From Candidatus Uhrbacteria bacterium (lineage in GTDB: Bacteria; Patescibacteriota; Patescibacteriia; UBA9934), in the NCBI GenBank assembly GCA_943359525.1, contig CALRHV010000004.1:1-62277 (forward strand): a DNA stretch of 62,277 bases. Direction: 5' to 3'. The notes under the pieces were generated by a model. The model searched no databases, had not been told where the DNA came from, and saw only the letters and a list, made by a program, of their open reading frames with translations. Made by a program: the position numbers and the translations under genes. Positions 12,046 through 58,131 of the stretch are shown here, in pieces (the stretch's first letter is position 1; each line of letters starts with the position of its first letter).

Positions 12046-12290
12046 CAGTCATCCCCGCGACCTGTCCCCCGGAGGGGGAAGGCGGGGATCCAGTGACTGA
12101 CCGCTCGCTAGTGGCTCGGATACATTCTTCTGCACTCCGCGCGAATCCCCTACGCTGCGACGTCTCACTTCGTTCGACTGCAGCTGAGGGGCGCGTGCTC
12201 GTTGGAAGAATACATCCTCGCCACTCACGCTCGCGATGTCCTCGGTGCCACCCTTGATTCGTTCGTTCGCACAATTCATCTCCCCATTTC
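12046..12290. repeat. Structured intergenic element (REP family A with nested hairpin plus long stem)
   Basis: GTCATCCCCGCG[ACCTGTCCCCCGGAGGGGGAA]GGCGGGGATCCA; homologous to the reverse complement of 17107-17291. Confidence 0.85.
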
Positions 12291-12291
12291 T

Positions 12292-12969
12292 ATGCTCACT
12301 TTTGTTCAAGAAAAATTATTACAGCAGCTCACCACCAAGCGAGGGAGACGTGAGACAGAGATGTTTGTGATTGAGGGCGAAAAATTTGTTCGCGATGCTG
12401 GGGGATTGGTGGAGTTTACGTTTACACCTGCCGACACAGCCCGATTTGCAGAATACGTTTCCACGGAGACACCTCAGGGGTTCGCCGCAGTTGCGCGTAT
12501 TCCAAAGGTGACCATGAAGCGTTTTGCGGAGTCGGCAACAATCGTTGTTCTCGATGGCGTTCAAGATCCGGGGAATGTTGGGACGATTCTTCGTGCAGCG
12601 CTTGGCTTTGGCGCGAGCGTTCTCCTGGTCGAATCTGCAGAAGTCACAAACCCGAAGGTTGTTCGTGCATCGGCGAGCGCGATTTTGAGAACACCGTGGA
12701 TGATGGTTGCTCGAGAAGATGCTGGAGCGATCATTGCGTCGTTTTGTAGACCGGTGTATCGGCTCGAGCTTCGTGATGGCGCGCTGCTCCCGAACGATAT
12801 CCGCCCAGAGCCTTGTGTGGTTATTGCGGGAAGCGAAGGGGGCGGCATCACATTACCTGTTGCGGGAACGTCGATTGCGATTCCGCACAACCCAGCACTT
12901 GAATCGTTAAATGTTGGCGTTGCAACATCAATTATTTTGTATGAACGAAGTCGACAGCTCGCCGTTTAG
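12292..12969 (+). CDS. TrmH/SpoU family RNA 2'-O-methyltransferase
   Basis: FVIEGEK, ETPQG, LDGVQDPGNVGTILR, GSEGGG, ESLNVGVA. Confidence 0.9.
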   Translation: MLTFVQEKLLQQLTTKRGRRETEMFVIEGEKFVRDAGGLVEFTFTPADTARFAEYVSTETPQGFAAVARIPKVTMKRFAESATIVVLDGVQDPGNVGTILRAALGFGASVLLVESAEVTNPKVVRASASAILRTPWMMVAREDAGAIIASFCRPVYRLELRDGALLPNDIRPEPCVVIAGSEGGGITLPVAGTSIAIPHNPALESLNVGVATSIILYERSRQLAV

Positions 12970-14116
12970 CATTATTGCGGAGCACGGTGCTGCGCGACGG
13001 GGAACGTTGCGCACAATGCACGGCGCTGTGGAGACGCCGGTGTTTATGCCAATCGCTACAGCCGGCGCGCTTAAAACGCTGCTGCCGAGCGAGGTAGCGA
13101 ATCTTGGCGCGTCGATTATTTTGGGAAACACGTATCATCTTTTGCTCCGCCCCGGCGAGGAAGAGCTGAAAAAATTTGGAGGCGTTCGTCCGTTTATGCA
13201 TTGGGACGGGCCGTTGCTCACCGACAGTGGGGGGTATCAAGTGTTTAGTTTATCGAAGCTAAACAAGACGGATGACGACGGCGTCACGTTTCAGTCGCAC
13301 ATCGATGGCAGCATGCATCGGCTCACTGCGGAACGATCAATGGAAATTCAAGACGCAATTGGTTCGTCAATCCGCATGCAGTTCGACGACGTCGCCGCAG
13401 GGAACTCGTCTCGCGATCGATACACTGAGGCGATGGAGCGTTCGCTCCGTTGGGCTGTGCGGTCGAAAAAACGATTTGATGAGCTCGTCACTGATCCGAC
13501 CAACCGACCACTCCTTTTCGGCATCGTCCAAGGCGGAACGCATCACGATCTTCGAATGCGATCTCTTCAAGGACTCGTCGATATTGGATTCGATGGTTAC
13601 GCGATCGGCGGACTATCGGTCGGAGAGTCTCGTGAAGATACGTTTCGTATTGTGCGATCGTTAGTAAAGGAGATGCCGGCGAATCGTCCACGATATTTTA
13701 TGGGCGGAGGAATGCCAGAGGAAATTGTGGCGTACGTTTCGTTCGGCGTCGATATGTTTGATTGCGTGTTGCCAACGCGCAATGCTCGACATGGTTCGCT
13801 GTTTGTTTGGAAGGGGGATCCGAAGGAGGCGGTGCGTGAAGCGTTTGCGCGAGCAATGGATGGTGCTGCTGATTTTCGTATCGCAGAAGCACTGTACGAA
13901 AAGATTCAAATTACCAATGAGCGGTTTACTGCAGATGAATCTCCGATCGATTCTTGGAACGATGCTGAAACATCGAAAACGTTTTCTCGGGCGTATCTTC
14001 GCCACCTGTTTAAAACTGGTGAAACGCTCGGACTTCGGTTGGCGACCCTGCAAAACCTGGGTTTTTACTTGAGAATGATGCAGGAATTACGTTTGATCAC
14101 AGCGAATCCCTTGTGA
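12941..14116 (+). CDS. tgt: tRNA-guanine transglycosylase (atypical: Zn ligands absent)
   Basis: ETPVFMP, LGNTYHL, TDSGGYQVFSL, FGIVQGG, GGLSVGE, DMFDCVLPTRNARHG, SRAYLRHL. Confidence 0.93.
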   Translation: MNEVDSSPFSIIAEHGAARRGTLRTMHGAVETPVFMPIATAGALKTLLPSEVANLGASIILGNTYHLLLRPGEEELKKFGGVRPFMHWDGPLLTDSGGYQVFSLSKLNKTDDDGVTFQSHIDGSMHRLTAERSMEIQDAIGSSIRMQFDDVAAGNSSRDRYTEAMERSLRWAVRSKKRFDELVTDPTNRPLLFGIVQGGTHHDLRMRSLQGLVDIGFDGYAIGGLSVGESREDTFRIVRSLVKEMPANRPRYFMGGGMPEEIVAYVSFGVDMFDCVLPTRNARHGSLFVWKGDPKEAVREAFARAMDGAADFRIAEALYEKIQITNERFTADESPIDSWNDAETSKTFSRAYLRHLFKTGETLGLRLATLQNLGFYLRMMQELRLITANPL

Positions 14117-14148: not shown

Positions 14149-16146
14149 ATGAATCGTACTGCGATTGGTGCGTTTTTCCTTGTCGTGTTCGCTGTAGGCG
14201 CCGGTATCCTTTCCTTTCCGAAAGAATGGAACGGTGCAATGGTTGCAATGAAGGACAAGGTGGGTTTCCATCTTCCGTATGTTCCGGAAAATGACTTTAC
14301 GCTTGGGCTCGACCTCAAGGGCGGCGCGCACTTGGTGTACGAGGCCGACATGACGTCGATTGACGAGGCGGAGCGCGAAACGGCGCTTGGTGGAATTCGC
14401 GATGTAGTGGAGCGTCGTGTGAATGCATTCGGTATTTCTGAACCTATCGTGCAAACCAACATTGCCGACGGTCACTACCGTGTGCTCGTAGACCTTCCTG
14501 GTGTTACTGACGTGAAGGACGCTATTGCACAGATTGGCGAAACGCCAGTGTTAACATTCCGTGTTCCCGTTACCGATGTCAGCACAACCCCAACGGCTGA
14601 ACAGCAAGCACAAATCGATGCCGCGCAAAAAACAGAACGTGTCGACGCGCTCGCGGTGATGGATCGCGCGCTTGCCGGCGAAGATTTCACTACGCTCGCA
14701 AAGCAATATTCAATCGATTCCACCACGAAAGACGATGGCGGTTACGTTGGATTTATTGCTGCTGCCGACGCAGAGTACGACGGACTCGTGACGCAGCTTG
14801 AGAAGGGCCGTACAAAGTTTGGTGTGGTGAACGGCTTGTACGAGGGCACGAGCAAAATGCACATCGTGAAGTACATCAGCAAGAAAACAGAATCCGAACC
14901 ACGTATTTCCCACATTCTTATCTGTTACGCTGGCGCGCCGAGCTGTACGCAGTCTCGAACAAAGGAGGAGGCTCTTGCGCTCGCAACACAGCTTCACACA
15001 GAAGCAACCACAAAAAACTTTGCCGACCTCGCGAAAACAAATTCCGACGATGGTGGGAGTAAAGACGCTGGTGGAGACGTCGACTACGTTCCTCGCGGAA
15101 AAATGGTGAAGCCGTTTGAAGACGCGGCATACGCGCTTCGCGACACCAAGATTTCTGAGGTTGTGGAATCAGAGTTCGGGTACCATATTTTGTATCGTGT
15201 CGGTTCTCGTCCATCGCGCAGCTATGAAATTGCGCAGATTGAAATGCCATGGACAACCGCGTCGGATATTCTCGTTGTTGACCCGTGGAAGAATACGGAG
15301 CTTTCTGGAAAAGACGTAAAACACGCATCGGTCGCGTTCGATCAGACCACTGGTGCGCCGTACATTGTGCTCGACTTTAACGAGAACGGAACGCAGCTTT
15401 TTGGCGATCTTACAAAAGAAAACGTTGGAAAGGTTATTGGTATTTTCTTGGACGGTCAGCCAATTACTACTCCAGTAGTTCAGGAGCCAATTTACGGTGG
15501 TCAGGCTTCCATTACCGGAAGCTTCACTATCGCAGAAGCGAAGTTGCTCGCGCAACGATTGAATGCCGGTGCATTGCCAGTGCCAATTTCCGTTGTGAGC
15601 CAGCAAACGATCGGTCCAGCGCTTGGAACCGCGTCGCTTGATCTGAGCGTGAAGGCGGGATTAATCGGATTCTTGCTCGTGGCGCTGTTCGTGGTTGGTT
15701 ACTATCGACTTCCTGGTGTGGTTGCCGTTGGTGCACTTGGCGTGTATGCCATTATCAACTTGGCGCTCTTCAAAATTCTCGGTGTGACCATTACGCTTTC
15801 CGGTATTGCGGGATTCATCTTCTCACTCGGAATTGCGGTTGACGCGAACGTGCTGATCTTTGAGCGATTGAAAGAAGAACTTCGCAGTGGTCGCGATCTC
15901 CCAACGGCAATGGAGGAGGCCTTCCGCCGTGCGTGGCCTTCTATTCGTGACGGAAATGCCACCACACTTATTGCGACGGCGATTTTGTACACGATGACGT
16001 CTGGATCGGTTCGTGGATTCGCTCTGACGTTGGCGCTCGGTGTGTTCGTTTCGTTGTTCTGCGCCTTCGTGGTGGGTCGCTTTGTGCTTCGCAGACTTGC
16101 CCGTATGCCAAAGCTCCGCAAGCCATTCTTCTTCCTTGGTCTCTAA
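14149..16146 (+). CDS. secD: Protein translocase subunit SecD with internal parvulin (rotamase)-like domains
   Basis: LGLDLKGG, RRVNAFGISEP, LNAGALP, GIAVDANVLIFERLKEE, DGNATTLI; inserted ISHILI...SDD.GS...GGD...MVKPFEDAAY...SEFGYHIL. Confidence 0.95.
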   Translation: MNRTAIGAFFLVVFAVGAGILSFPKEWNGAMVAMKDKVGFHLPYVPENDFTLGLDLKGGAHLVYEADMTSIDEAERETALGGIRDVVERRVNAFGISEPIVQTNIADGHYRVLVDLPGVTDVKDAIAQIGETPVLTFRVPVTDVSTTPTAEQQAQIDAAQKTERVDALAVMDRALAGEDFTTLAKQYSIDSTTKDDGGYVGFIAAADAEYDGLVTQLEKGRTKFGVVNGLYEGTSKMHIVKYISKKTESEPRISHILICYAGAPSCTQSRTKEEALALATQLHTEATTKNFADLAKTNSDDGGSKDAGGDVDYVPRGKMVKPFEDAAYALRDTKISEVVESEFGYHILYRVGSRPSRSYEIAQIEMPWTTASDILVVDPWKNTELSGKDVKHASVAFDQTTGAPYIVLDFNENGTQLFGDLTKENVGKVIGIFLDGQPITTPVVQEPIYGGQASITGSFTIAEAKLLAQRLNAGALPVPISVVSQQTIGPALGTASLDLSVKAGLIGFLLVALFVVGYYRLPGVVAVGALGVYAIINLALFKILGVTITLSGIAGFIFSLGIAVDANVLIFERLKEELRSGRDLPTAMEEAFRRAWPSIRDGNATTLIATAILYTMTSGSVRGFALTLALGVFVSLFCAFVVGRFVLRRLARMPKLRKPFFFLGL

Positions 16147-16151
16147 ATCCT

Positions 16152-17054
16152 ATGAAATTCTCCTTAAACGTTATTGGCCACTCAAAACTGTGGTTGGCGA
16201 TCTCTGGCGGTATCATTGTGGTTGCGTTCATTGCGTTGTTTACCTACGGATTGAACTTCGGTATCGACTTTACCGGCGGAAGCTTGCTCCAAGTGAACGC
16301 ACCTGCAACGTCCGTTGAGGCATTGCGCAATGGCGTTGCCACCGCGGGATTCGAATCTGTGGTTCAGCAAGGCGAGGGTGACGCCTATTTCGTTCGTCTT
16401 GCGCCGGTGACTGAAGAAGAGCATCAAGCCATCTTCACTGCGGTAAAAACCGTTTCTCCCGATGCGGCAGAGATTCGTTTTGACACTGTCGGCCCGGTGA
16501 TCGGCGGTGAACTCGAGAGTGCATCCGTGAAGGCAACGGCGCTGATGCTCCTGCTCATCACGCTGTACGTGGCGTGGGCATTCCGAAAGGTCACTCGTCC
16601 TGTTGCGTCGTGGAAATACGGCGTGGTGACGATGATCGCAGCGTTCCACGACGTCATTATTCCGCTTGGCGTGTTCGCTGTTCTTGGTCATTACTTTGGG
16701 TACCAAGTAGACATGGCGTTCGTTGCGGCAGTGCTGACGATTCTTGGATACTCCATTAACGACACTATCGTGGTGCTTGATCGAACGCGTGAGAATCTCA
16801 TTCGTCATCGTCACGGTGATGCGTCGTTCGGGGCTATTGTGAATAAAAGCGTTGTAGAGACGTTTGCTCGTTCAATCAACACCACGTTTGCAACGATGCT
16901 TCCACTTCTCGCCGTTTTTATTGTTGGTGGTGCAACCACTCGTCCATTCGTCCTTGCCCTCATTATTGGTATGCTCTCCGGAGCATATTCATCCATCTTC
17001 GTCGCAAGTCCTTTGCTTGTAGAATGGGAAAAATGGAGAGCTCACCGAACATAG
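16152..17054 (+). CDS. secF: Protein translocase subunit SecF
   Basis: GIDFTGG, VGPVIG, FHDV, GYSINDTIVVLDRTREN, RSINT, GAYSSIFVASP. Confidence 0.95.
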   Translation: MKFSLNVIGHSKLWLAISGGIIVVAFIALFTYGLNFGIDFTGGSLLQVNAPATSVEALRNGVATAGFESVVQQGEGDAYFVRLAPVTEEEHQAIFTAVKTVSPDAAEIRFDTVGPVIGGELESASVKATALMLLLITLYVAWAFRKVTRPVASWKYGVVTMIAAFHDVIIPLGVFAVLGHYFGYQVDMAFVAAVLTILGYSINDTIVVLDRTRENLIRHRHGDASFGAIVNKSVVETFARSINTTFATMLPLLAVFIVGGATTRPFVLALIIGMLSGAYSSIFVASPLLVEWEKWRAHRT

Positions 17055-17334: not shown

Positions 17335-18801
17335 ATGATTGGCATCGCAATTCACCTTCCAACCGTTGTCGTGCACTACCTTAAGGTGACGCCTCTTCCG
17401 CTCATGATGACGCAGGCTCTGCTGCTCATTGGTTGGATTCCAATCCTTGGCGTTATTATTTGGGGTTTAACGCACATTTGGCAAGACTATAAACAGGGCT
17501 TGTACGCAAAAACTCTTAAATGGCAGATTCTCTCAGTGAATGTTCCGCAGGACGCGATCAACACGCCAAAGGGCATGGAGAACTTTTTTGTGAATCTTTC
17601 CGGCGTGAAGTCGGGAATTACCTGGAGAGAAAAGTGGCTTGTTGGAAAAGAACAGGCGTCGTTTAGCTTTGAAATCGTGAGCAACGAAGGAAAGATTCAG
17701 TTCATTATTCGTACGATCGACAAATATCGTGATTTGGTTGAGGCGGCGTTGTATGCGCAGTATCCAGAAGCGCAGATTACCGAAATTCAAGATTACGCCA
17801 TGGCTATTCCACGGGAGTATCCCAACAACGAATACGATGTGTTCGGTGGTGAATTAGCGTTGTCGAATAAAGCATTCTTTCCAATTCGAACATTCGAAGA
17901 CTTTGAACATCAGGGCGAGAAAGACTTCCGTTTTAAGGATCCATTGCTGCCAATTATTGAAATGATGGGAAAAATGCGCGAGAAAGAACACTATTGGATT
18001 CAGTTCATTATTCGTCCCCCAGACGATCAGAGCTGGACGAAGGAAGGCATCGCGTATCTTAATAAAATGATGGGCAAGGAAGAGAAGCATGCGCCGGGCT
18101 TTATGGACGCTATTACGGAAAGCGCGCTATGGCTTCCGAAGGGAGTTGCGGCGCAGTTAATAGGATTTGGTGCCCCAGCAGATGGCCACAAGGAGGAAAA
18201 GAAGGACGACTTCCGCATGTTCCGCATGACTCCTCAGGAGAAAGTGATGCTTGATAGTGTTGCGGATAAAATTTCGAAGGTTGGGTGGAAAACGAAGATT
18301 CGGTTCTTGTACGCTGGTCCAAAAACGGACTTCCGCAAGGGATTGATGGCAAGTTCCATGAAAGGCATGTGGGCGGTATTTACGAATCAAAATTTGAACA
18401 GCTTAAGTTTGCATGGTCCGGCAATTCCGAAGGACGACTACTTCTGGCAGAAATGGAAAATGCCGGAGAAGCAACGGAATCTTGTTGAGCGATATCAGGG
18501 TCGTAAGGGTGGGGCTGGTGGAAGCTGGCAAATGTTGAACACCACAGAGCTCGCGACGTTATTTCACTTTCCAGCAGCAGATGCTCGTACCCCTGTTCTT
18601 TCTACAACTGGAGCGCGCCGTGCGGAGGCTCCAAATACTTTGGAGTTTGCAATACATAATGAGCCGCAGCTTCAAAACTGGAAACTGCAAAATGCCGACG
18701 CGAAGGAGGAAGAGCGTGTACAGAGCCTTCCTATTGCACCACTGCGTGTACCAACCCCAATGTCTCCAACAGAAGACGCGCCACCAAACCTTCCGATGTA
18801 A
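17335..18801 (+). CDS. Hypothetical N-anchored protein partnering the downstream TraD/VirD4-like ATPase
   Basis: N-terminal TM, SFEIVS, LYAQYPEAQITE, LNTTELATLFHFP; immediately upstream of the ATPase. Confidence 0.65.
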   Translation: MIGIAIHLPTVVVHYLKVTPLPLMMTQALLLIGWIPILGVIIWGLTHIWQDYKQGLYAKTLKWQILSVNVPQDAINTPKGMENFFVNLSGVKSGITWREKWLVGKEQASFSFEIVSNEGKIQFIIRTIDKYRDLVEAALYAQYPEAQITEIQDYAMAIPREYPNNEYDVFGGELALSNKAFFPIRTFEDFEHQGEKDFRFKDPLLPIIEMMGKMREKEHYWIQFIIRPPDDQSWTKEGIAYLNKMMGKEEKHAPGFMDAITESALWLPKGVAAQLIGFGAPADGHKEEKKDDFRMFRMTPQEKVMLDSVADKISKVGWKTKIRFLYAGPKTDFRKGLMASSMKGMWAVFTNQNLNSLSLHGPAIPKDDYFWQKWKMPEKQRNLVERYQGRKGGAGGSWQMLNTTELATLFHFPAADARTPVLSTTGARRAEAPNTLEFAIHNEPQLQNWKLQNADAKEEERVQSLPIAPLRVPTPMSPTEDAPPNLPM

Positions 18802-18807
18802 TTTGCT

Positions 18808-20712
18808 ATGCGCTACGAACACGACCACGAAAAAGACATTGTCTATTTTGGCCAAACAAATTTCCGCAATCAAATGCGGAGGTTTGGCATTAAAACAGAC
18901 GACCGTCGTCGCCACATGTATATTGTGGGAAAGACGGGTATGGGAAAGACGGTGCTTTTAGAAAACATGATTCTTGCGGATATTTACGCGGGGCATGGTT
19001 GTGCATACATCGATCCGCACGGAGACACCATCACAAAAATTCTTGATTACATTCCTTCGTGGCGTATTAATGACGTAGTGTATTTTAATCCGGCAGATGC
19101 AGATTTTCCTGTTGCGTTTAACATGCTGGAGAAAACGGAAGGCTGGGAAAACGTAAAAGATTACAATGCGAAAGTGATGTATAGTCTTCTTTCGATTTTT
19201 AAGAAAGTGTGGGAGAACGTGTGGAGTGCCCGCATGGAATACATTCTGCAGTACACGATTCTTGCACTCTTGGACACCCCGGGAACAACGCTCCTTGGTA
19301 TTAACCGCATGTTGTCGGACAAGGAGTATCGCACGGAAATCGTGCAGAACGTAAAGGATCCAATGGTTCAGGCATTCTGGCTCAAGGAATTTGCGCAATA
19401 CGACGTAAAATTTGCTGCAGAGGCTTCTGCGCCAATTCAAAATAAAGTTGGACAGTTCTTGGCGTCAACGATGATGCGAAACATCGTTGCGCAATCAAAA
19501 TCGTCCTTTAATTTCCGTGAAGTGATGGACGGTCAGAAGATCCTTCTTATCAACCTTTCGAAGGGTCAAATAGGTGAAGATGCGATGCGTATTCTTGGCG
19601 GAATGTTGATTACGAAAATCTACATGTCGGCCATGGAGCGTGTGAACATTCGCGACGAAAATGAACGACAAGATTTTTATTTGTACGTGGATGAATTTCA
19701 GAACTTTGCGACGGAATCGTTTGCGGATATTTTGTCTGAAGCCCGAAAGTACCGACTGAATCTGATCATCGCACATCAGTACATCGCGCAGCTCGACAGC
19801 ATGACGTCTACCGCGGTTCGCGACGCCGTGTTTGGTAACGTTGGGAGTTTGATTACATTCCGTATTGGAGCGAAAGATGCGGAATTCTTGGAAAGTGAAT
19901 TCATGCCAAGATTTTTGCCGGAAGACTTGATCAACCTCGCAAAATACAACATTTATTTGAAACTCATGATTGATGGCGTGAGCAGCCAGCCATTCTCGGC
20001 AATGACGCTTCCGCCAATTGGTCAGCGCACAGGAAGCGAGGATAAGGTCGTTGAACAGTCGCGTGAGCGATTCGGCGGAAACCGCAAGATGATTGAAGAC
20101 CATGTGATGACGTGGAGTGGGTTTGATCCAAATATTAATGTTGGTGAGGCGTTAGCGAAGGTTGCCGCAGAAAAGAAGGAAGCAAAAAAGGCACGATTCG
20201 CTCATGAGTACACCTGTGCTCGTTGTGAAAAATTATTTACGTTGCCAGTAGAGCTCGATAAGAGCAGACCAATTTATTGCGACGATTGCCATGCGCTCAT
20301 CGTTGAGGAACGGAAGAAGAAGGGGTCATCAAAACCGCCACAGGGAAAACAGTACGCTCCTGAACCGCCAAAGATTTCAACGAGCGAAATGATTGTGAAA
20401 CCAACGCCAGGGGAGGCCTCACTTGAGGAGCTTCAGCCACGTCCAGCGACGCCAGCTCCAGCAGCTCCGATTGTGCCGATTCCTAGGCCTATTCCTCCTG
20501 TGTTGTCGGCTCCGATTGTGCCAACCACAGAAGGCCAGCCGGCAAAGAAAAAGCGTCGTCGGAAGAAGAAACCATCAGGTCTTGGTTCATCGATGACGCC
20601 AATCCCAAACCCAGCGCCTCGACCAGTTAAAGATTCTGTTGCCGCGGCAATGTCTGCCGGCCCTGTTCCAACTCCCGTTGCTCCCGGTGAGCGGATTAGT
20701 TTCGACGCGTAA
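18808..20712 (+). CDS. TraD/TrwB/VirD4-like (DUF87/HerA) ATPase with CxxC-x17-CxxC domain and Pro/Lys-rich tail
   Basis: IVGKTGMGKT (Walker A), IDPHGD, YVDEFQNF (Walker B), EARKYRL..AHQY, CARC...YCDDC. Confidence 0.85.
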   Translation: MRYEHDHEKDIVYFGQTNFRNQMRRFGIKTDDRRRHMYIVGKTGMGKTVLLENMILADIYAGHGCAYIDPHGDTITKILDYIPSWRINDVVYFNPADADFPVAFNMLEKTEGWENVKDYNAKVMYSLLSIFKKVWENVWSARMEYILQYTILALLDTPGTTLLGINRMLSDKEYRTEIVQNVKDPMVQAFWLKEFAQYDVKFAAEASAPIQNKVGQFLASTMMRNIVAQSKSSFNFREVMDGQKILLINLSKGQIGEDAMRILGGMLITKIYMSAMERVNIRDENERQDFYLYVDEFQNFATESFADILSEARKYRLNLIIAHQYIAQLDSMTSTAVRDAVFGNVGSLITFRIGAKDAEFLESEFMPRFLPEDLINLAKYNIYLKLMIDGVSSQPFSAMTLPPIGQRTGSEDKVVEQSRERFGGNRKMIEDHVMTWSGFDPNINVGEALAKVAAEKKEAKKARFAHEYTCARCEKLFTLPVELDKSRPIYCDDCHALIVEERKKKGSSKPPQGKQYAPEPPKISTSEMIVKPTPGEASLEELQPRPATPAPAAPIVPIPRPIPPVLSAPIVPTTEGQPAKKKRRRKKKPSGLGSSMTPIPNPAPRPVKDSVAAAMSAGPVPTPVAPGERISFDA

Positions 20713-23727: not shown

Positions 23728-26700
23728 ATGTCCGCATCTATTGTGAAGGAGGGGGCCGTTAAAACACGTGAAGCTGACGTTACGTCTGCCGTATACGGCT
23801 ACATGACGTCGGTGAAGGAGGTTATTAAACGTGATGGCACGCATGCGGCGTTCTCTTCGGAGAAGCTTGAACGATCGGTGATCCGGTCGCTTCTTGCTGC
23901 AGGGTTTAAGGAAAAAGATCTTGTCCGATACGTGAGCCGTATCACCGGGAATATCCTTTCTCGCATTCAACGTCGATTTGATGGGCACAGCACACCAACA
24001 TCAAGCATTGTCCGTGAGATGGTCGCTGTCGCGTTTATCGACAACAACCTTGTTCACGTTGCTCGTGTCTATTTGTCGTATCGGAAGTCCGATGTTGTGA
24101 TTGCTGGCGAACAATACGGTAAGGGCATTTCCATGGATCGATATTTCACCAAGGAAGGCGTCCATCCGTACGATTTGCTCACCTGGGAGAAGCGAACGGC
24201 AATTATTACCAATGAAAAAGGTGCAACGGTGTTTGAACAGCGTGATATTGAGGTGCCAAGCACCTGGAGCCAAACATCGGTGAATATTGTTGCGCAGAAG
24301 TATTTCCGCGGAAAAGTCGGCACACCAGAACGCGAGACGTCCATGAAACAACTCATGAGCCGTGTCGCCGTCACGATGGCGAACTGGGGCCGAAAGGATG
24401 GCTATTTCACCACCGCAAAGGATGCACAGGTGTTCGAGGACGAATTGACGTGGATCCTTGTGAACCAAATGGCCGCATTCAACTCGCCGGTGTGGTTCAA
24501 CGTTGGTATCAATCCGCATCCACAATGTTCGGCGTGTTTTATTAACAGCGTTGAGGACGACATGCGTTCGATTCTTCACCTTACGGCAACGGAGAGCATG
24601 TTGTTCAAGCAAGGTTCGGGAACGGGTTCCAACCTTTCAAATCTTCGATCGTCTCAGGAATATCTTGGCGGAAGCAACGGCCGATCGTCTGGTCCGGTCA
24701 GTTTCATGAAAGGTCTCGATTCATTTGCTGGTATTGTGAAGTCCGGTGGAAAGACGCGTCGTGCAGCAAAAATGGTCATTTTAAACGTTGGTCATCCAGA
24801 CATCATGACCTTTATTGAGTGTAAGGCAAAGGAAGAGCGCAAGGCGTGGACGTTGGTGGATGCTGGCTACGATAGTGGCATGGATGGCGAAGCATACGGA
24901 TCCATTTACTTCCAAAACGCAAACAACTCGGTACGTGTGACGGACGATTTTATGCGCGCTGTTGAGGCTGACGCTGAATGGGTTACTCACGAGGTGACGA
25001 CGGGGAAGCCGTCACTGACCTACAAGGCGCGAGAAGTGATGCGGAGCATGGCGGAGTGTGCGTGGCAGTGTGGTGATCCTGGCGTGCAGTACGATACGAC
25101 CTCAAACCGTTGGCACACGTCAAAGAACACGGGTCGCATTAACGCGAGTAACCCATGTTCCGAATATATGTTCTTGGACGACACCGCGTGTAACTTGTCG
25201 TCGCTCAACTTGATGAAGTTCCGCAAAGAAGTGAATGGCGTCATGGAATTTGACGTTCCATCATTTATTCGCGCAGCAAAGGTGATGATCACGGCGATGG
25301 AGATCACCGTCGGCAATTCCAGCTACCCAACGCCGTCCATCGAGCAGAACAGCCACGACTTCCGTCCACTGGGCATCGGATTTGCAAACCTTGGAGCGCT
25401 CCTCATGAGTCGTGGTGTTGCATACGATTCTGACGAAGGACGAAACATCGCTGGAGGAATCATGTCGTTGCTTTCCGGATGTACGTACGAACAAAGCGCA
25501 CACATCGCAGAGAAGATCGGAGCCTTCGCCGGTTTCGAACTCAACAAAGAGCCATGTATGGAGGTGATGCGTATGCATCGTGACGCAACGTATGCCATGA
25601 ACCTCGAGGCGCTTCCAGCCGACATTGCTGCTGCTGCGCGAACTGCTTGGGACAACGTGGTAACGGAAGGTGACAAACATGGTTTGCGCAACGCGCAGAT
25701 TTCCGTACTTGCTCCAACGGGAACCATCGCGTTCTTAATGGATTGCGACACCACAGGAATTGAACCAGACATCGCTATCGTCAAATACAAATGGTTGGTG
25801 GGCGGCGGAATGCTCAAGATGGTGAATCAGACGGTTCCGGAAGCGTTGACACGTTTGAGATACACGTCCGATGAGCGTAAGGCGATCCTTGAGTTCATCG
25901 ATACGCAAGACACCATTGAAGGCGCACCATTCGTGAAGCCGGAACATCTTTCCGTATTTGATTGTGCGTTCAAGGCAAAGAATGGCGTGCGTTCGATTCA
26001 CTATATGGGCCACCTTCGCATGATGTCTGCAGTCCAGCCGTTTATTTCCGGCGCAATCAGCAAAACGGTGAACATGCCAAACGAAGCAACCGTCGAAGAG
26101 ATCGAGAAGGTGTACATGGAGGGCTGGAAGATGGGCTTGAAGGCGATTGCTATTTATCGCGATGGCAGCAAGCGTCAGCAGGCGCTCACCACAAGTAAAG
26201 AGAAGGACTCTGGAAAGGCACATGAATCCGTACCAACCGTGAAGGTCGCGCCAATCTCGGAGAGCACGAACGCGCCACGTCGCCGCCGGTTGCCAGATGA
26301 GCGTCGCGCAATCAACCACAAGTTCTTAGTTGGTGGACACAAAGGATTCATCACCGTTGGTTTGTACGACGACGGAACACCTGGAGAAATGTTCATCACC
26401 ATGGCGAAGGAAGGATCCGTGATCAGCGGCTTGATGGACGCATTCGCAACGTCGGTTTCCATTGGCTTGCAGTACGGTGTGCCAATCCAGGTGCTCGTAA
26501 ACAAGTTCGTGCACATGCGCTTCGAGCCATCCGGCTTCACGAACAATCCAAACATTCGCATTGCAAAATCCATCGTTGACTACATCTTCCGTTGGATGGC
26601 GCTCAAGTTCCTTTCGCCACAAGAGCAAATTGCAGTCGGAATTAATATCGTTCCTGCGATTAGTGATTCGGTCGCTGGTGATCGTTCAGCCGATCCTACG

Positions 26701-26925
26701 GATTCTTCTGTGCCATCGGCGGAGCTTCAACCAACAATCTTTGCAACAGCGACTGATGCGAATCCAACAATGACTCCAGGCACAGCGCCACAGAAAACAG
26801 CGCTTACCTCCACCTTCAACAACACCGCCGACGCCCCAGCCTGCGACACCTGCGGCAACATCATGGTGCGCAACGCGGCCTGCTACAAATGCTTGAACTG
26901 TGGGAGTACGAGTGGATGCTCCTGA
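23728..26925 (+). CDS. nrdJ: Class II (adenosylcobalamin-dependent) ribonucleotide reductase with ATP-cone and TSCPD/Zn-ribbon C-terminus
   Basis: VIKRDG ATP-cone, FNSPVWFN, SACFIN, QNANNSVRV, ASNPCSEY, LAPTGTI, QPFISGAISKTVN, CDTC..CLNC. Confidence 0.96.
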   Translation: MSASIVKEGAVKTREADVTSAVYGYMTSVKEVIKRDGTHAAFSSEKLERSVIRSLLAAGFKEKDLVRYVSRITGNILSRIQRRFDGHSTPTSSIVREMVAVAFIDNNLVHVARVYLSYRKSDVVIAGEQYGKGISMDRYFTKEGVHPYDLLTWEKRTAIITNEKGATVFEQRDIEVPSTWSQTSVNIVAQKYFRGKVGTPERETSMKQLMSRVAVTMANWGRKDGYFTTAKDAQVFEDELTWILVNQMAAFNSPVWFNVGINPHPQCSACFINSVEDDMRSILHLTATESMLFKQGSGTGSNLSNLRSSQEYLGGSNGRSSGPVSFMKGLDSFAGIVKSGGKTRRAAKMVILNVGHPDIMTFIECKAKEERKAWTLVDAGYDSGMDGEAYGSIYFQNANNSVRVTDDFMRAVEADAEWVTHEVTTGKPSLTYKAREVMRSMAECAWQCGDPGVQYDTTSNRWHTSKNTGRINASNPCSEYMFLDDTACNLSSLNLMKFRKEVNGVMEFDVPSFIRAAKVMITAMEITVGNSSYPTPSIEQNSHDFRPLGIGFANLGALLMSRGVAYDSDEGRNIAGGIMSLLSGCTYEQSAHIAEKIGAFAGFELNKEPCMEVMRMHRDATYAMNLEALPADIAAAARTAWDNVVTEGDKHGLRNAQISVLAPTGTIAFLMDCDTTGIEPDIAIVKYKWLVGGGMLKMVNQTVPEALTRLRYTSDERKAILEFIDTQDTIEGAPFVKPEHLSVFDCAFKAKNGVRSIHYMGHLRMMSAVQPFISGAISKTVNMPNEATVEEIEKVYMEGWKMGLKAIAIYRDGSKRQQALTTSKEKDSGKAHESVPTVKVAPISESTNAPRRRRLPDERRAINHKFLVGGHKGFITVGLYDDGTPGEMFITMAKEGSVISGLMDAFATSVSIGLQYGVPIQVLVNKFVHMRFEPSGFTNNPNIRIAKSIVDYIFRWMALKFLSPQEQIAVGINIVPAISDSVAGDRSADPTDSSVPSAELQPTIFATATDANPTMTPGTAPQKTALTSTFNNTADAPACDTCGNIMVRNAACYKCLNCGSTSGCS

Positions 26926-26945
26926 TCGGTGATTGATTCTTAATC

Positions 26946-26976
26946 GATAAGCGGGGCCTACCGTGCCTCGCTTATC
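26946..26976. repeat. Palindromic hairpin shared with 45012-45040 (terminator/REP-like)
   Basis: GATAAGCGGGGC-CTACCGT-GCCTCGCTTATC. Confidence 0.55.
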
Positions 26977-26983
26977 TGTTTCT

Positions 26984-27571
26984 ATGACCGATTCCTCAAA
27001 ACCCATTCTCGACGAACGAATCAAGGGCCGACAAGGTTACGGGCTGATTCAACTCATTCATGGTCATGGGAAGGGAAAGACCACGGCGGCCCTTGGGCAG
27101 GCGGTGAGGTGTGTTGGTGCGGGGAAGAAGGTGATGATTGTGTATTTTGATAAGGGAGGCACGTCGCACTACAGCGAACGTTGCATCATTGATCAGATTG
27201 ATGGCATCGATTATGTTGCAACAGGGCGCGATCGGATTGACCCGGTGACGAATCGATTTGATTTTTCGATTAACGATACTGATCGGAGTGAAGCAGAACG
27301 GGGAATCGATCTTGCGAAAAAAGCGATGATGTCGGGGGAATATGATCTTGTGATTCTTGACGAGATCAACTCTACGCAGAACTTGGGAATGCTTTCCGCC
27401 GATTCCGTGCTCGATGCAATACAGTCCAAAAGCGAGAATGTTGAGGTGATTTTGACTGGACGTAATCCGGCGCAAGAATTTCTTGATGCTGCACATCTTG
27501 TCACAGAAATGCAATTACAAAGGCATTATTTCTATTCTGGTGTTCAGGCGAGAGCTGGACTTGATTTTTAA
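26984..27571 (+). CDS. cobO: Cob(I)alamin adenosyltransferase (CobO/BtuR)
   Basis: GHGKGKTTAALG, FDKGG, LVILDEI, EVILTGR, AHLVTEM, ARAGLDF. Confidence 0.9.
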   Translation: MTDSSKPILDERIKGRQGYGLIQLIHGHGKGKTTAALGQAVRCVGAGKKVMIVYFDKGGTSHYSERCIIDQIDGIDYVATGRDRIDPVTNRFDFSINDTDRSEAERGIDLAKKAMMSGEYDLVILDEINSTQNLGMLSADSVLDAIQSKSENVEVILTGRNPAQEFLDAAHLVTEMQLQRHYFYSGVQARAGLDF

Positions 27572-56695: not shown

Positions 56696-57251
56696 AGCGA
56701 TCATCGCAAATAAAACTTTTGTTCTCGCCGGGATGGTGATTGTACTTTCGGCGGTGTTGGTTATTGGCAGACACTTTGATGCGAGCTGGGCTGGGGGAGA
56801 AGGGTATCGTGCACGATCGGAGATTGTTGTGGTTGAACAGACCGATCCATCATCTGACATCGGATGTGAGGAGGTCGATGCATCGAGGAAAAATATATTG
56901 TCGTGTGGATCGATGATGAAGATTGCTTTTGGCTCGTCGATCATTTGGATGGACGCAAAGACATCACTCGTCGTGATCAATGATCGTGAGGGAAAAGAAG
57001 AGCTCGCGTTGTATGGTGGTCGAATCGTTGTCGATGGTCCGGTTGTTGTCGATGTTCGAGATCAGCAGTTTTCGGCATCGGAACCGATGAGTATTGTGAA
57101 TTATGGTTGGTTGTATCGCGTTGATGTGTTATTGATGGAGCAAGATACTGCGAAGAGTTTTGACACGTTGCCGCCGTATGACGAACCAAAAGACATCGAA
57201 TTCAGCACGCAAAGCGAAAGCGTCAAAGACTTCTACGACTGGGCGCATTGA
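56685..57251 (+). CDS. Hypothetical membrane-anchored protein (possible FecR-like beta domain)
   Basis: N-terminal TM followed by beta-strand-rich sequence. Confidence 0.5.
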   Translation: MSFKAIIANKTFVLAGMVIVLSAVLVIGRHFDASWAGGEGYRARSEIVVVEQTDPSSDIGCEEVDASRKNILSCGSMMKIAFGSSIIWMDAKTSLVVINDREGKEELALYGGRIVVDGPVVVDVRDQQFSASEPMSIVNYGWLYRVDVLLMEQDTAKSFDTLPPYDEPKDIEFSTQSESVKDFYDWAH

Positions 57252-58131
57252 GGAATTTCATAAGATTGTTTTTGATTGGTTCAGGGTTCATCGGCGCGAC
57301 CTTCCTTGGCGGAGAACCACCGATCCGTACGCTATTGCACTTTCCGAGATCATGCTCCAGCAAACACAAGTCGATCGCGTTATTCCAAAATGGCGTGCAT
57401 TTCTTTTGGCGTTTCCCACGTGGAGTGATCTTGCGAGTGCATCCACGGCGGATGTGATCCGATTGTGGCAGGGGCTTGGCTACAACCGTCGTGCCGTTAT
57501 GCTTCATCGATTAGCGAAGGCCGTGATCGATCTCGGCAGGGAGCTTCCCGATGATATCGATGCAATGAAGAAGCTTCCTGGTATTGGCGACTACACCGCG
57601 AACGCAATCGCAGCCTTTGCATTTCGCAATCCCGACGCTGCACCAGTCGATACAAATATTTCGAGAATCTTCCGTCGCGTATTTCCTCGTCATCGATCTG
57701 ACCCGAAGTCGATGCAGCGACTAGCTCGATCGATCCGTCCAGCCGATGTCTGGACGTGGAATCACGCACTCATGGACATCGGAGCGCTTCACTGCTCGGC
57801 GCGAGGTCATGTTTGGGGTTTATGTCCGTTGGCTCCTCTTCATGGATCGAAAGAGCCTAAGATATCTCTCCACCCATTTATGGGGGGAGTCGGAGGGGGG
57901 CTTGTACGTGCGAAGAAGGCGATCAAATTCGAATCCACCGATCGCTACTTCCGCGGCCGAATCGTCGATGCCCTCCGCGAATCGCCGATGATGCTGAAGA
58001 AACTTCGTCTCCGATCGGAGCTTGCGGGCCTCGAAGAAGCTCGATTTCAGACCTTGATTTCGAAGCTTGTGCATGGCGGTGTCGTCGAACAGTACAAAAG
58101 TACGGTATTCTTGGCGGGTGATCGGGACTGA
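57178..58131 (+). CDS. mutY: A/G-specific adenine glycosylase (MutY-like HhH-GPD), degenerate Fe-S motif
   Basis: RRDLPWRR, SEIMLQQTQV, GLGYNRRA, LPGIGDYTA, PVDTNISR, ALMDIGA; start uncertain. Confidence 0.85.
   Translation: MTNQKTSNSARKAKASKTSTTGRIEEFHKIVFDWFRVHRRDLPWRRTTDPYAIALSEIMLQQTQVDRVIPKWRAFLLAFPTWSDLASASTADVIRLWQGLGYNRRAVMLHRLAKAVIDLGRELPDDIDAMKKLPGIGDYTANAIAAFAFRNPDAAPVDTNISRIFRRVFPRHRSDPKSMQRLARSIRPADVWTWNHALMDIGALHCSARGHVWGLCPLAPLHGSKEPKISLHPFMGGVGGGLVRAKKAIKFESTDRYFRGRIVDALRESPMMLKKLRLRSELAGLEEARFQTLISKLVHGGVVEQYKSTVFLAGDRD
57861..57900 (+). repeat. REP-like repeat family D inserted in-frame in mutY
   Basis: GATATCTCTCCACCCATTTATGGGGGGAGTCGGAGGGGGG; encodes ISLHPFMGGVGGG. Confidence 0.75.

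Follow-up and report, generated by a model that had tools for sequence, protein, structure and literature searches.

Can a tRNA guanosine(34) transglycosylase (Tgt) dispense with every ligand of its structural zinc and still be an ordinary enzyme, or does such a loss go along with a change of substrate? The question is raised by a gene in a 62,277-nucleotide stretch of Candidatus Uhrbacteria DNA (contig CALRHV010000004.1; the whole stretch is hereafter called the window), for which a zinc-independent Tgt, possibly salvaging a different deazaguanine from the host, was the original prediction. As a drug target Tgt has been studied extensively, and its Zn(Cys3His) site is a textbook example of an absolutely conserved feature. 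The site (Cys318, Cys320, Cys323, His349) has been described as such across the three domains of life, in a study from whose dataset sequences without zinc ligands were removed (PMC3074131).

Identity of the tgt gene

12941..14116, + strand: tgt (matches to PF01702 and TIGR00430; start at Met11 as in relatives)

The longest open reading frame (ORF) spans 12911..14116 on the + strand and encodes 401 amino acids, while the true tgt start is likely Met11 at 12941, matching the start of 391-residue relatives; residues 1-13 of the 401-residue ORF have pLDDT values below 50 in the AF2 model. The ORF scores 422 bits against the TIGR00430 equivalog, above the bacterial Tgt cut-off of 306.75, and 431 bits against PF01702. 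Z. mobilis Tgt is matched with an E-value of about 1e-106 and ~45% identity, and the HMMER alignment falls into two blocks (query residues 18-302 and 332-394). The AF2 model (pLDDT 90.5) is a (beta/alpha)8 barrel with a C-terminal subdomain that can be superposed on solved Tgt, and Foldseek comparison with Z. mobilis Tgt structures gave TM scores of 0.89-0.91, so that the TIM-barrel fold is common to this protein and the Z. mobilis/E. coli type Tgt (EC 2.4.2.29; PDB 1pud, 1q2r and others) at an rmsd of 1.6-2.0 Å. Membership in the DpdA family (NF041059) is not supported, with 16.9 bits against a cut-off of 200, and archaeosine TgtA (TIGR00432) reached 110 bits against 350, matching the N-terminal 114 residues alone. 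The window contained a single recognisable Tgt homologue. The ORF is a bacterial Tgt orthologue by descent, a variant that lacks one hallmark, namely the zinc site.

The former zinc knuckle and the preceding insert

13817..13903, + strand: lineage-specific insert DPKEAVREAFARAMDGAADFRIAEALYEK, aa 303-331 (alignment gap; AF2 model)
13958..14053, + strand: former zinc knuckle, N350/A352/S355/Q381 (alignment to Z. mobilis; pLDDT 97-98; kept in relatives)

In the HMMER alignment, Z. mobilis DSECHCAVCQKW...TEHN pairs with DSWNDAETSKTF...TLQN in the Uhrbacteria Tgt, and the zinc ligands C318, C320, C323 and H349 are replaced by N350, A352, S355 and Q381, respectively, which bears out the claim that all four are absent. 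A survey of Tgt alignments from CPR bacteria had been proposed along with that claim; it found the ligand loss, and with it the insert and the pocket described below, in 120/120 closest relatives (66-100% identity, Patescibacteria/Uhrbacteria). None of these carries CxCxxC, and the structural Zn(Cys3His) hallmark of bacterial Tgt is missing throughout, while S355 and Q381 are invariant (120/120). As these features recur in all of the relatives, which come from independent assemblies, they are not due to chance or assembly error. The dimer-interface helix FSRAYLRHLFKTGE sits between the former ligand loop and Q381. In the mature protein, C285, which adjoins the catalytic Asp284, is the sole Cys, and therefore no alternative Cys site is possible; no lineage-specific conserved His or Cys able to rebuild the site was found in the alignment of the zinc-less clade either, where S355 and Q381 are the only invariant positions among the residues specific to the clade. 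As far as the sequence goes, zinc independence is thus supported.

Far from decaying, the gene is kept under strong purifying selection. The dN/dS values are 0.024-0.091 for the whole gene, 0.02-0.18 for the former zinc subdomain (aa 332-394) and 0-0.25 for the insert, all of them approximate because dS is saturated (1.1-2.5). A pseudogene, with a dN/dS near 1, had been named as an outcome that would overturn the prediction, and it is rejected by these values.

The zinc-less proteins form a monophyletic group (100/98) whose sister (100/99) is a zinc-retaining pair composed of P0312 and L006, the latter from Ca. Uhrbacteria bacterium GW2011_GWC2_41_11. The two sister proteins share 59-61% identity with the zinc-less Uhrbacteria Tgt and have an identical pocket (FDDVA.G, GGLSVGE, YFMGGGMPEE), but they keep CxCxxC...H, unlike the zinc-less clade. 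They also carry an insert at the same site that ends in FY.K(I/M), but it measures ~17 aa and does not have the first helix. Replacement of all four ligands goes back to one ancestor of the Uhrbacteria-type clade, a single origin within this clade. A scan of genome contigs returned at least four Uhrbacteria-type loci among the matches listed, which were mostly from Proteobacteria.

Loss of the zinc motif is not confined to this clade. For 141 family representatives, no fewer than 6 independent changes of the motif have to be assumed, with 20 in the most parsimonious case; the motif-less lineages include, from the Alphaproteobacteria, Devosia (a cluster of 358 members), Pelagibacterium, Sphingosinicella, Caulobacterales, Hyphomonadaceae and Beijerinckiaceae, and also Phycisphaerales, and they are independent, as they form separate, supported clades. 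Tgt sequences without the motif also occur in several further metagenomic clades. Like the Uhrbacteria Tgt, the other motif-less proteins have lost CxCxxC with their catalytic residues intact, and often carry Gln or Asn at the His349 position, although some keep His349; P0221, from an unrelated zinc-less lineage, has the same Ser...Gln pair. They differ in that most have no insert and keep a classical FDEC(T/V)P pocket, as exemplified by P0139 and P0221 with FDECTPY/GGLAVGE. These many independent losses within the Tgt family undermine the premise that zinc is structurally required. Ligand mutants of E. coli Tgt are nonetheless said, in work of Chong et al. from 1995, to lose both zinc and activity. 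Our literature searches for Tgt free of zinc, or for queuosine in Patescibacteria, gave no relevant result, and the zinc-free Tgt is a previously unreported structural variant of an enzyme already known.

Proteome-wide avoidance of zinc or Cys was considered and rejected, since the CxxCxGxG motifs of the DnaJ zinc finger are intact in the window proteome, the Cys content of which is 0.93%. Zinc-independent 'C-minus' paralogues are known for the L31/L33/L36/S14 ribosomal proteins, and further examples are DksA2, QueD2 and FolE2 (in part from PMC9894224). The likeness lies in a structural or catalytic zinc site that is swapped for metal-free residues with function kept; yet C-minus paralogues are extra copies induced by zinc starvation, whereas the zinc-free Tgt is the only one seen locally and is fixed in its lineage.

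An insert of approximately 25 residues ahead of the zinc site had been predicted as well. Its presence is confirmed, while its length is 29 aa by alignment, an addition relative to the Z. mobilis and E. coli Tgt that lies ahead of the C-terminal subdomain. Residues 303-331 are predicted to form a two-helix hairpin (helices 304-316 and 321-328; pLDDT 95-98; AF2, DSSP) at the turn of the beta-hairpin with which this subdomain begins, before the former zinc knuckle, with a conserved hydrophobic face made up of P304, V308, A311, A315, I324, A325, L328 and Y329. Besides, some zinc-containing Tgt carry inserts of 13-27 aa. The idea that the insert is an in-frame copy of a DNA repeat of the genome was rejected: no other DNA copy was found in the window, the insert is conserved as protein, and its synonymous divergence is saturated. 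It is also absent from other zinc-less lineages and is therefore not a general requirement for a zinc-free Tgt or for zinc loss.

Catalytic residues, substrate pocket and gene neighbourhood

13223..13225, + strand: Asp105 (= Z. mobilis Asp102) in LTDSGGYQV (alignment; invariant in the clade)
13382..13402, + strand: pocket loop FDDVAAG (D159 = Z. mobilis D156, V161 = Z. mobilis C158; invariant in 120 relatives)
13607..13627, + strand: substrate loop GGLSVGE (L235/S236/V237/E239 = Z. mobilis L231/A232/V233/E235; invariant)
13694..13723, + strand: YFMGGGMPEE (Z. mobilis YLMGVGKPDD; V262 to G, K264 to M; invariant in the clade)
13760..13762, + strand: Asp284 (= Z. mobilis nucleophile Asp280) in DMFDC, followed by C285 (alignment; invariant)

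The catalytic Asp motifs are intact, as had been claimed: D105 and D284 align with Asp102 and Asp280 of the Z. mobilis enzyme and are invariant in the relatives. The same holds for the pocket residues D159, Q207, G234, L235, V237 and E239 (Asp156, Gln203, Gly230, Leu231, Val233 and Glu235 in Z. mobilis), for R290 and R293 (R286 and R289), and for K55, Y362, H365 and E371, which correspond to the dimer hot-spot residues K52, Y330, H333 and E339. Two further positions of the dimer interface vary, as the W326 position is occupied by Phe or Tyr and the F92 position by L, F or M. The pocket is a hybrid, again in line with the prediction, in that FDDV places V161 at the position of Z. mobilis C158 while GGLSVGE retains V237 at that of V233. 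It differs from the Z. mobilis and E. coli Tgt not only by C158V and A232S but also by T159A, P160A and Y161G (A162, A163 and G164 of the pocket loop) and by V262G and K264M, five changes to which the prediction had not drawn attention. The pairing of Val158 with Val233 is also found in other, zinc-containing bacterial Tgt (representatives P0150 and P0159).

Mutagenesis showed that queuine needs Gly233 for productive binding and that C158V does no more than weaken preQ1 binding, with an increase of KM(preQ1) by about 16-fold in the Z. mobilis variant (Biela et al., 2013; PMC3660597). The queuine-type signature of QTRT1 and C. trachomatis-type TGT (Val158 together with Gly233), with which the pocket is enlarged to take the cyclopentenediol, is not found here, as V161 is present and V237 is invariant. 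QTRT1, the catalytic subunit of the eukaryotic queuine tRNA-ribosyltransferase, likewise has a DDV stretch that puts Val at the Cys158 position, but it has Gly233 (GGLSGGE), keeps the zinc site and forms a heterodimer with QTRT2; its PDB match to the Uhrbacteria Tgt is also much weaker (E-value 7e-72 versus 1e-106). Since Val233 is retained and queuine needs Gly233, the pocket sequence argues against queuine and points to preQ1 as the base that is most likely inserted. Nevertheless, Val161 and the other pocket changes may alter the affinity for preQ1 and leave the preferred base uncertain.

12202..12969, + strand: SpoU/TrmH-family RNA 2'-O-methyltransferase, RlmB-like (TIGR00186, 68.9 bits, below cut-off)
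14149..17054, + strand: secD (with parvulin PPIase domains) and secF, directly downstream of tgt

The 3' end of the SpoU gene overlaps the tgt start by 29 nt, and the pair is kept with overlapping ends throughout the zinc-less clade while both flanks vary. At the zinc-retaining L006 locus, no SpoU gene lies upstream of tgt and mraZ-rsmH-ftsL is found there instead, while the downstream ClpB-like/GT4/DUF192 context is common to some zinc-less members. The tgt-secDF order resembles the tgt-yajC-secDF operon of E. coli, from which the Uhrbacteria locus differs in the overlapping methyltransferase gene and in having neither queA nor yajC adjoining tgt. In the bacterial pathway, QueA and QueG/QueH act after Tgt has inserted preQ1. 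No queuosine gene was detected among about 50 ORFs of the window (Pfam/NCBIfam) or beside tgt in relatives, and in DNA of the clade (about 160 kb) tblastn with a Leclercia QueA query (from L065) gave no match. When the window and L003-L006 were scanned with Rfam, tRNAs were the only matches and no preQ1 riboswitch appeared, and ARAGORN found no GUN-anticodon tRNA in the DNA examined. The window amounts to about 6% of a genome, and que genes missing from it say little.

Alternative explanations and implications

We consider it probable that this protein is an ordinary tRNA guanosine(34) transglycosylase with a zinc-free knuckle held by ordinary packing and with preQ1 as its most likely base. 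The Uhrbacteria Tgt retains the fold, the two catalytic aspartates, the 7-deazaguanine pocket and the arginines that contact the anticodon loop, together with the hot-spot residues of the homodimer. It is therefore expected to form a homodimer and to replace G34 in tRNAs with GUN anticodons (Asp, Asn, His, Tyr) by a 7-deazaguanine, presumably via a covalent Asp284-ribose intermediate. The C-terminal subdomain would no longer be cross-linked by Zn(Cys3His), and two candidate buttresses may take part in the packing of the metal-free knuckle: a pairing of the side chains of Ser355 and Gln381, both invariant and both at positions once held by ligands, and the amphipathic two-helix insert, which was lengthened on the same branch as the ligand loss.

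The prediction had further coupled the zinc loss to a different deazaguanine derived from the host, be it queuine, preQ0 or some other base. In favour of this, CPR bacteria generally depend on a host, genes for que biosynthesis are missing from the window and from the vicinity of tgt in relatives, and the pocket departs from that of Z. mobilis and E. coli (C158V, T159A, P160A, Y161G, V262G, K264M), with C158V being the exchange that reduces preQ1 affinity in Z. mobilis (PMC3660597). Yet the zinc-retaining sister has the same pocket, so that zinc loss and pocket signature are evolutionarily uncoupled, and the zinc-less P0139 and P0221 keep the classical one. Val233 is invariant where productive queuine binding requires Gly233 (PMC3660597), and the absence of que genes from about 6% of a genome carries little weight. 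Such a shift is thus unlikely, and its coupling to the zinc loss is not supported. We speculate more freely, and with less confidence still, that the zinc-free Tgt and the overlapping SpoU methyltransferase could act as a functional pair in which the remodelled pocket (V161, A162, A163, G164, G266, M268) installs a salvaged 7-deazaguanine as the final or 2'-O-methylated wobble base instead of queuosine, and that, more broadly, recurrent knuckle loss could be selected zinc-sparing or streamlining and not neutral drift.

That a structural metal is still bound via non-canonical ligands (His, Asp, Glu, or across the dimer) seems very improbable. Conserved acidic or polar residues (D347, D351, T354, S355) do line the former ligand loop, with H365 near in sequence, but D347, H365, H76 and H130 are also present in aligned zinc-containing Tgt (H294 is the exception), the only clade-specific invariants, S355 and Q381, would be poor zinc ligands, and a single Cys is left. 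Recruitment to a different nucleic acid, either rRNA or, as with DpdA, DNA, and perhaps jointly with the SpoU methyltransferase, would fit the overlapping gene pair that is kept across the zinc-less clade and absent from L006; an overlap can, however, lock two genes together by itself, the protein passes the cut-off of the Tgt equivalog and falls far short of those of DpdA (16.9 vs 200) and TgtA (110 vs 350), its anticodon-loop-binding arginines and pocket are invariant, and the window holds a single tgt homologue, which makes this reading remoter still. Least credible is a decaying or catalytically dead enzyme. The loss of a hallmark site and the inactivation by zinc-site mutation that Chong reportedly observed in 1995 for E. 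coli Tgt could be taken to favour it, but dN/dS is 0.02-0.09, more than 120 relatives have an undisrupted frame, no catalytic or substrate residue varies, and the predicted fold has high confidence.

The zinc loss leaves the class of the enzyme unaltered and, so far as is apparent, its reaction too. A natural and strongly conserved zinc-free Tgt would show that the enzyme can fold, dimerise and bind tRNA without the knuckle, and would correct annotation and alignment filters that count ligand-less sequences as errors. Motif-less Tgt, present in a CPR clade and of separate origin in genera that can be cultivated, Devosia among them, offers ready material on the role of zinc. For the biology of CPR bacteria, it would be a further instance of a tRNA-modification enzyme that is retained while its cofactor requirement is simplified.

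Identity of the gene and fate of the zinc ligands

The open reading frame passes the NCBI equivalog model for bacterial tRNA guanosine(34) transglycosylase (TIGR00430, 422 bits vs a cut-off of 306.75) and matches Pfam TGT (PF01702) with 431 bits, while it fails the archaeosine TgtA (110 vs 350) and DpdA (16.9 vs 200) models. Among solved structures, those of Z. mobilis Tgt match it best (E about 1e-106). Since its relatives, 391-393 aa long, start at the equivalent of Met11 (12941) and residues 1-13 are disordered in the AlphaFold2 model, the gene most likely spans 12941..14116 and overlaps the upstream gene by 29 nt.

12911-14116, + strand: tgt open reading frame, 401 aa
13817-13903, + strand: 29-residue insert (aa 303-331), the gap between the two HMMER blocks against Z. 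mobilis Tgt
12202-12969, + strand: SpoU/TrmH-family methyltransferase (RlmB-like, score below cut-off), upstream of tgt, overlap 12941-12969

The HMMER alignment with Z. mobilis Tgt, which covers query residues 18-302 and 332-394 as separate blocks, places Z. mobilis DSECHCAVCQKWSRAYIHHL...MTEHNIAFY opposite DSWNDAETSKTFSRAYLRHL...ATLQNLGFY, so that Cys318, Cys320, Cys323 and His349 correspond to Asn350, Ala352, Ser355 and Gln381. All four ligands are replaced, as the original prediction stated, and the insert that it had put at about 25 residues before the former zinc site was found with 29. Its readings of the active site were likewise borne out: both catalytic Asp motifs are intact, LTDSGGYQV with the Asp102 equivalent and DMFDC with the nucleophile Asp280 equivalent, and the pocket is a hybrid in which FDDVAAG carries Val161 at the Cys158 position and GGLSVGE retains Val233 (as Val237). 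Further pocket differences from Z. mobilis, absent from that prediction, are T159A, P160A, Y161G, V262G, and K264M, with YFMGGGMPEE in place of YLMGVGKPDD.

From 5.8 billion proteins searched, 120 relatives with 66-100% identity were recovered, and those bearing names are Patescibacteria or Candidatus Uhrbacteria. The insert is present in 120/120 of them and CxCxxC in 0/120. Ser355 and Gln381 are invariant, as are FDDVA, GGLSVGE, YFMGGGMPEE, both catalytic Asp residues, Gln207, Arg290, Arg293, and the dimer hot-spot equivalents Lys55, Tyr362, His365, and Glu371. A decaying pseudogene, for which dN/dS near 1 had been named as the sign, is refuted by Nei-Gojobori comparison of the window gene with five relatives (zinc-less loci L001 and L083-L086): dN/dS was 0.024-0.091 over the full gene, with 0-0.25 in the insert and 0.02-0.18 in the former zinc subdomain, values that are approximate because dS is saturated (1.1-2.5), yet far from 1. 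Nor did alternative Cys/His ligands, another refuting circumstance foreseen, emerge. The mature window protein has exactly one Cys; Cys285, the only conserved Cys in the clade, adjoins the nucleophile and occurs in canonical Tgt as well. The invariant His76, His130, and His365 are shared with zinc-containing Z. mobilis Tgt, and the invariant His294 (Asn in Z. mobilis) sits next to the nucleophile strand of the barrel, outside the zinc subdomain. Lineage-specific residues cannot build a replacement Cys/His site.

The AlphaFold2 model, computed from 64 clade members, reached a mean pLDDT of 90.5 and a pTM of 0.90, and its superposition on Z. mobilis Tgt structures gave TM 0.89-0.91 at an rmsd of 1.6-2.0 Å. 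In the former ligand loop (aa 341-360) pLDDT is 97-98. For the insert the model predicts two helices (304-316 and 321-328, pLDDT 95-98) at the turn joining strands 296-300 and 329-333, and the conserved insert positions P304, V308, A311, A315, D321, I324, A325, L328, and Y329 fall on one face per helix, as would be expected for a helical hairpin packed onto the protein. The former zinc knuckle is probably held by ordinary packing, with a putative Ser355-Gln381 hydrogen bond and a putative contact between insert and knuckle. The insert DNA has no second copy anywhere in the window, which excludes it as one of the genome's known in-frame repeat elements.

Origin of the loss and base specificity

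Maximum-likelihood analysis groups the zinc-less sequences in a single clade (support 100/98) that is sister to Ca. Uhrbacteria bacterium GW2011_GWC2_41_11 (L006), whose Tgt is 59% identical to the window Tgt, and the metagenomic protein P0312 (enclosing clade 100/99). Both retain the zinc motif as PLDPFCDCVTCK...TIHN. The sister lineage has the same pocket as the zinc-less clade (SFDDVAAG/CFDDVAEG, GGLSVGE, YFMGGGMPEE), and at the same site an insert that is shorter (about 17 aa) with the same FY.K(I/M) ending. The ligands therefore disappeared a single time, on the same branch on which the insert acquired its first helix, and the unusual pocket predates this loss. Pocket signature and zinc loss are thus separate events, and the suggestion that zinc loss was coupled to a changed pocket or substrate is not supported. 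The combination of Val158 and Val233 is also found in zinc-containing bacterial Tgt (P0150, P0159). A substrate change is possible, yet not tied to the zinc loss.

In Z. mobilis Tgt, C158V raises KM(preQ1) from 0.9 to 16 µM and leaves guanine unaffected, and Val233Gly opens the pocket for queuine (Biela et al., PMC3660597). As Val233 is invariant in the clade, queuine is an unlikely substrate, and preQ1 (or preQ0) is the most likely one, although Val161 and the residues A162, A163, G164, G266, and M268 may modify its affinity. No que genes or known Q-precursor transporters were found among about 50 window ORFs, about 160 kb of clade DNA gave no QueA match, and there was no preQ1 riboswitch in the window and L003-L006 and no GUN tRNA in the DNA scanned. 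Because the genome measures roughly 1 Mb and little of it is covered here, these absences carry little weight.

Gene neighbourhood

All zinc-less loci examined (L001-L005, L083-L088 and the locus of P0064) have the SpoU-tgt pair, even those with other flanks (FtsX or DUF6938 upstream; a small ORF and ClpB downstream). The two genes are neighbours without overlap in L004, where the SpoU match stops about 0.8 kb short of tgt on its upstream side. Zinc-retaining L006 lacks the pair and has mraZ-rsmH-ftsL upstream of tgt instead. The pairing may reflect simple locking by overlap, or a functional link. L004 (CAZORP010000004.1) is labelled 'uncultured Gammaproteobacteria bacterium' and bears the Uhrbacteria-type zinc-less tgt with the SpoU gene; the label of this MAG looks wrong, or the contig mis-binned.

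Downstream of tgt lie secD, with parvulin domains, and secF. SecD (14149-16146, +) carries parvulin-type PPIase domains within its periplasmic region (PrsA/SurA-like matches, aa 150-400), an architecture common to all relatives. Just 3' of secF, 17335-20712 (+) encodes a DUF8128 protein and, after it, a TraG/VirD4-like coupling ATPase, an arrangement also kept in L001 and L087. A class II (B12-dependent) ribonucleotide reductase with ATP-cone and TSCPD domains adjoins a BtuR/CobO corrinoid adenosyltransferase (23728-27571, +). The HhH-GPD (MutY/Nth-like) glycosylase (57160-58131, +) has the C-terminal Cys cluster CSARGHVWGLCPLAPLH and, 15 residues downstream, a GGVGGG segment, and its usual 4-Cys iron-sulfur motif therefore looks degenerate in sequence. 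General metal economy was rejected as an explanation, because the window DnaJ keeps its four CxxC motifs, of which three are full CxxCxGxG, the window also encodes a beta-CASP metallo-beta-lactamase RNase, and Cys accounts for 0.93% of about 18,900 residues.

Zinc-motif loss across the Tgt family

From a profile-free search of 1.84 billion proteins, the best 150 cluster representatives were examined, none sharing more than 51% identity with the query; CxCxxC is present in 106 full-length representatives and missing in about 30. On a family tree built without the zinc-subdomain columns, the motif changes 20 times by parsimony, and at least six changes are forced by well-supported branches. Loss of the zinc motif is thus recurrent in the Tgt family. 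Zinc-less Tgt is found in Devosia (a 90% cluster of 358 members, cultured species), in Phycisphaerales and, among the 80 genome loci listed, in Pelagibacterium, Sphingosinicella, and MAGs of Sphingomonadales, Caulobacterales, Hyphomonadaceae, and Beijerinckiaceae. These proteins mostly lack the insert and have the classical FDEC(T/V)P pocket, and Gln or Asn recurs at the His349 position.

The losses in Devosia, Pelagibacterium, Sphingosinicella, other Alphaproteobacteria MAGs, and Phycisphaerales are independent, and several fall in cultivable genera. Zinc-less examples are P0272 with cluster-mates P0275, P0277, P0280, P0281, and P0284, as well as L056, L082, L022, L055, L075, L079, and P0190 (with P0314, P0315, P0317, and P0318). 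Some of these retain His349. P0221, from an unrelated metagenomic zinc-less lineage, has the ligand pattern S-A-S-Q; its Ser at the Cys323 position and Gln at the His349 position match those of the window Tgt, which suggests convergence on a Ser-Gln replacement.

Tgt is counted as a zinc metalloenzyme in zinc-starvation work (PMC9894224), and Chen et al. (PMC3074131), who describe the zinc site as absolutely conserved, removed Tgt sequences without the ligands. The literature searched contained nothing on Tgt lacking zinc, nor on queuosine in Patescibacteria, and reports elsewhere are possible. The window Tgt is most plausibly a working orthologue of the bacterial enzyme without the zinc site, one that would still exchange tRNA G34, most likely for preQ1. 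It represents a new structural form of an established enzyme and not a new kind of enzyme, and the loss of its zinc site is one that has been repeated elsewhere in the family.
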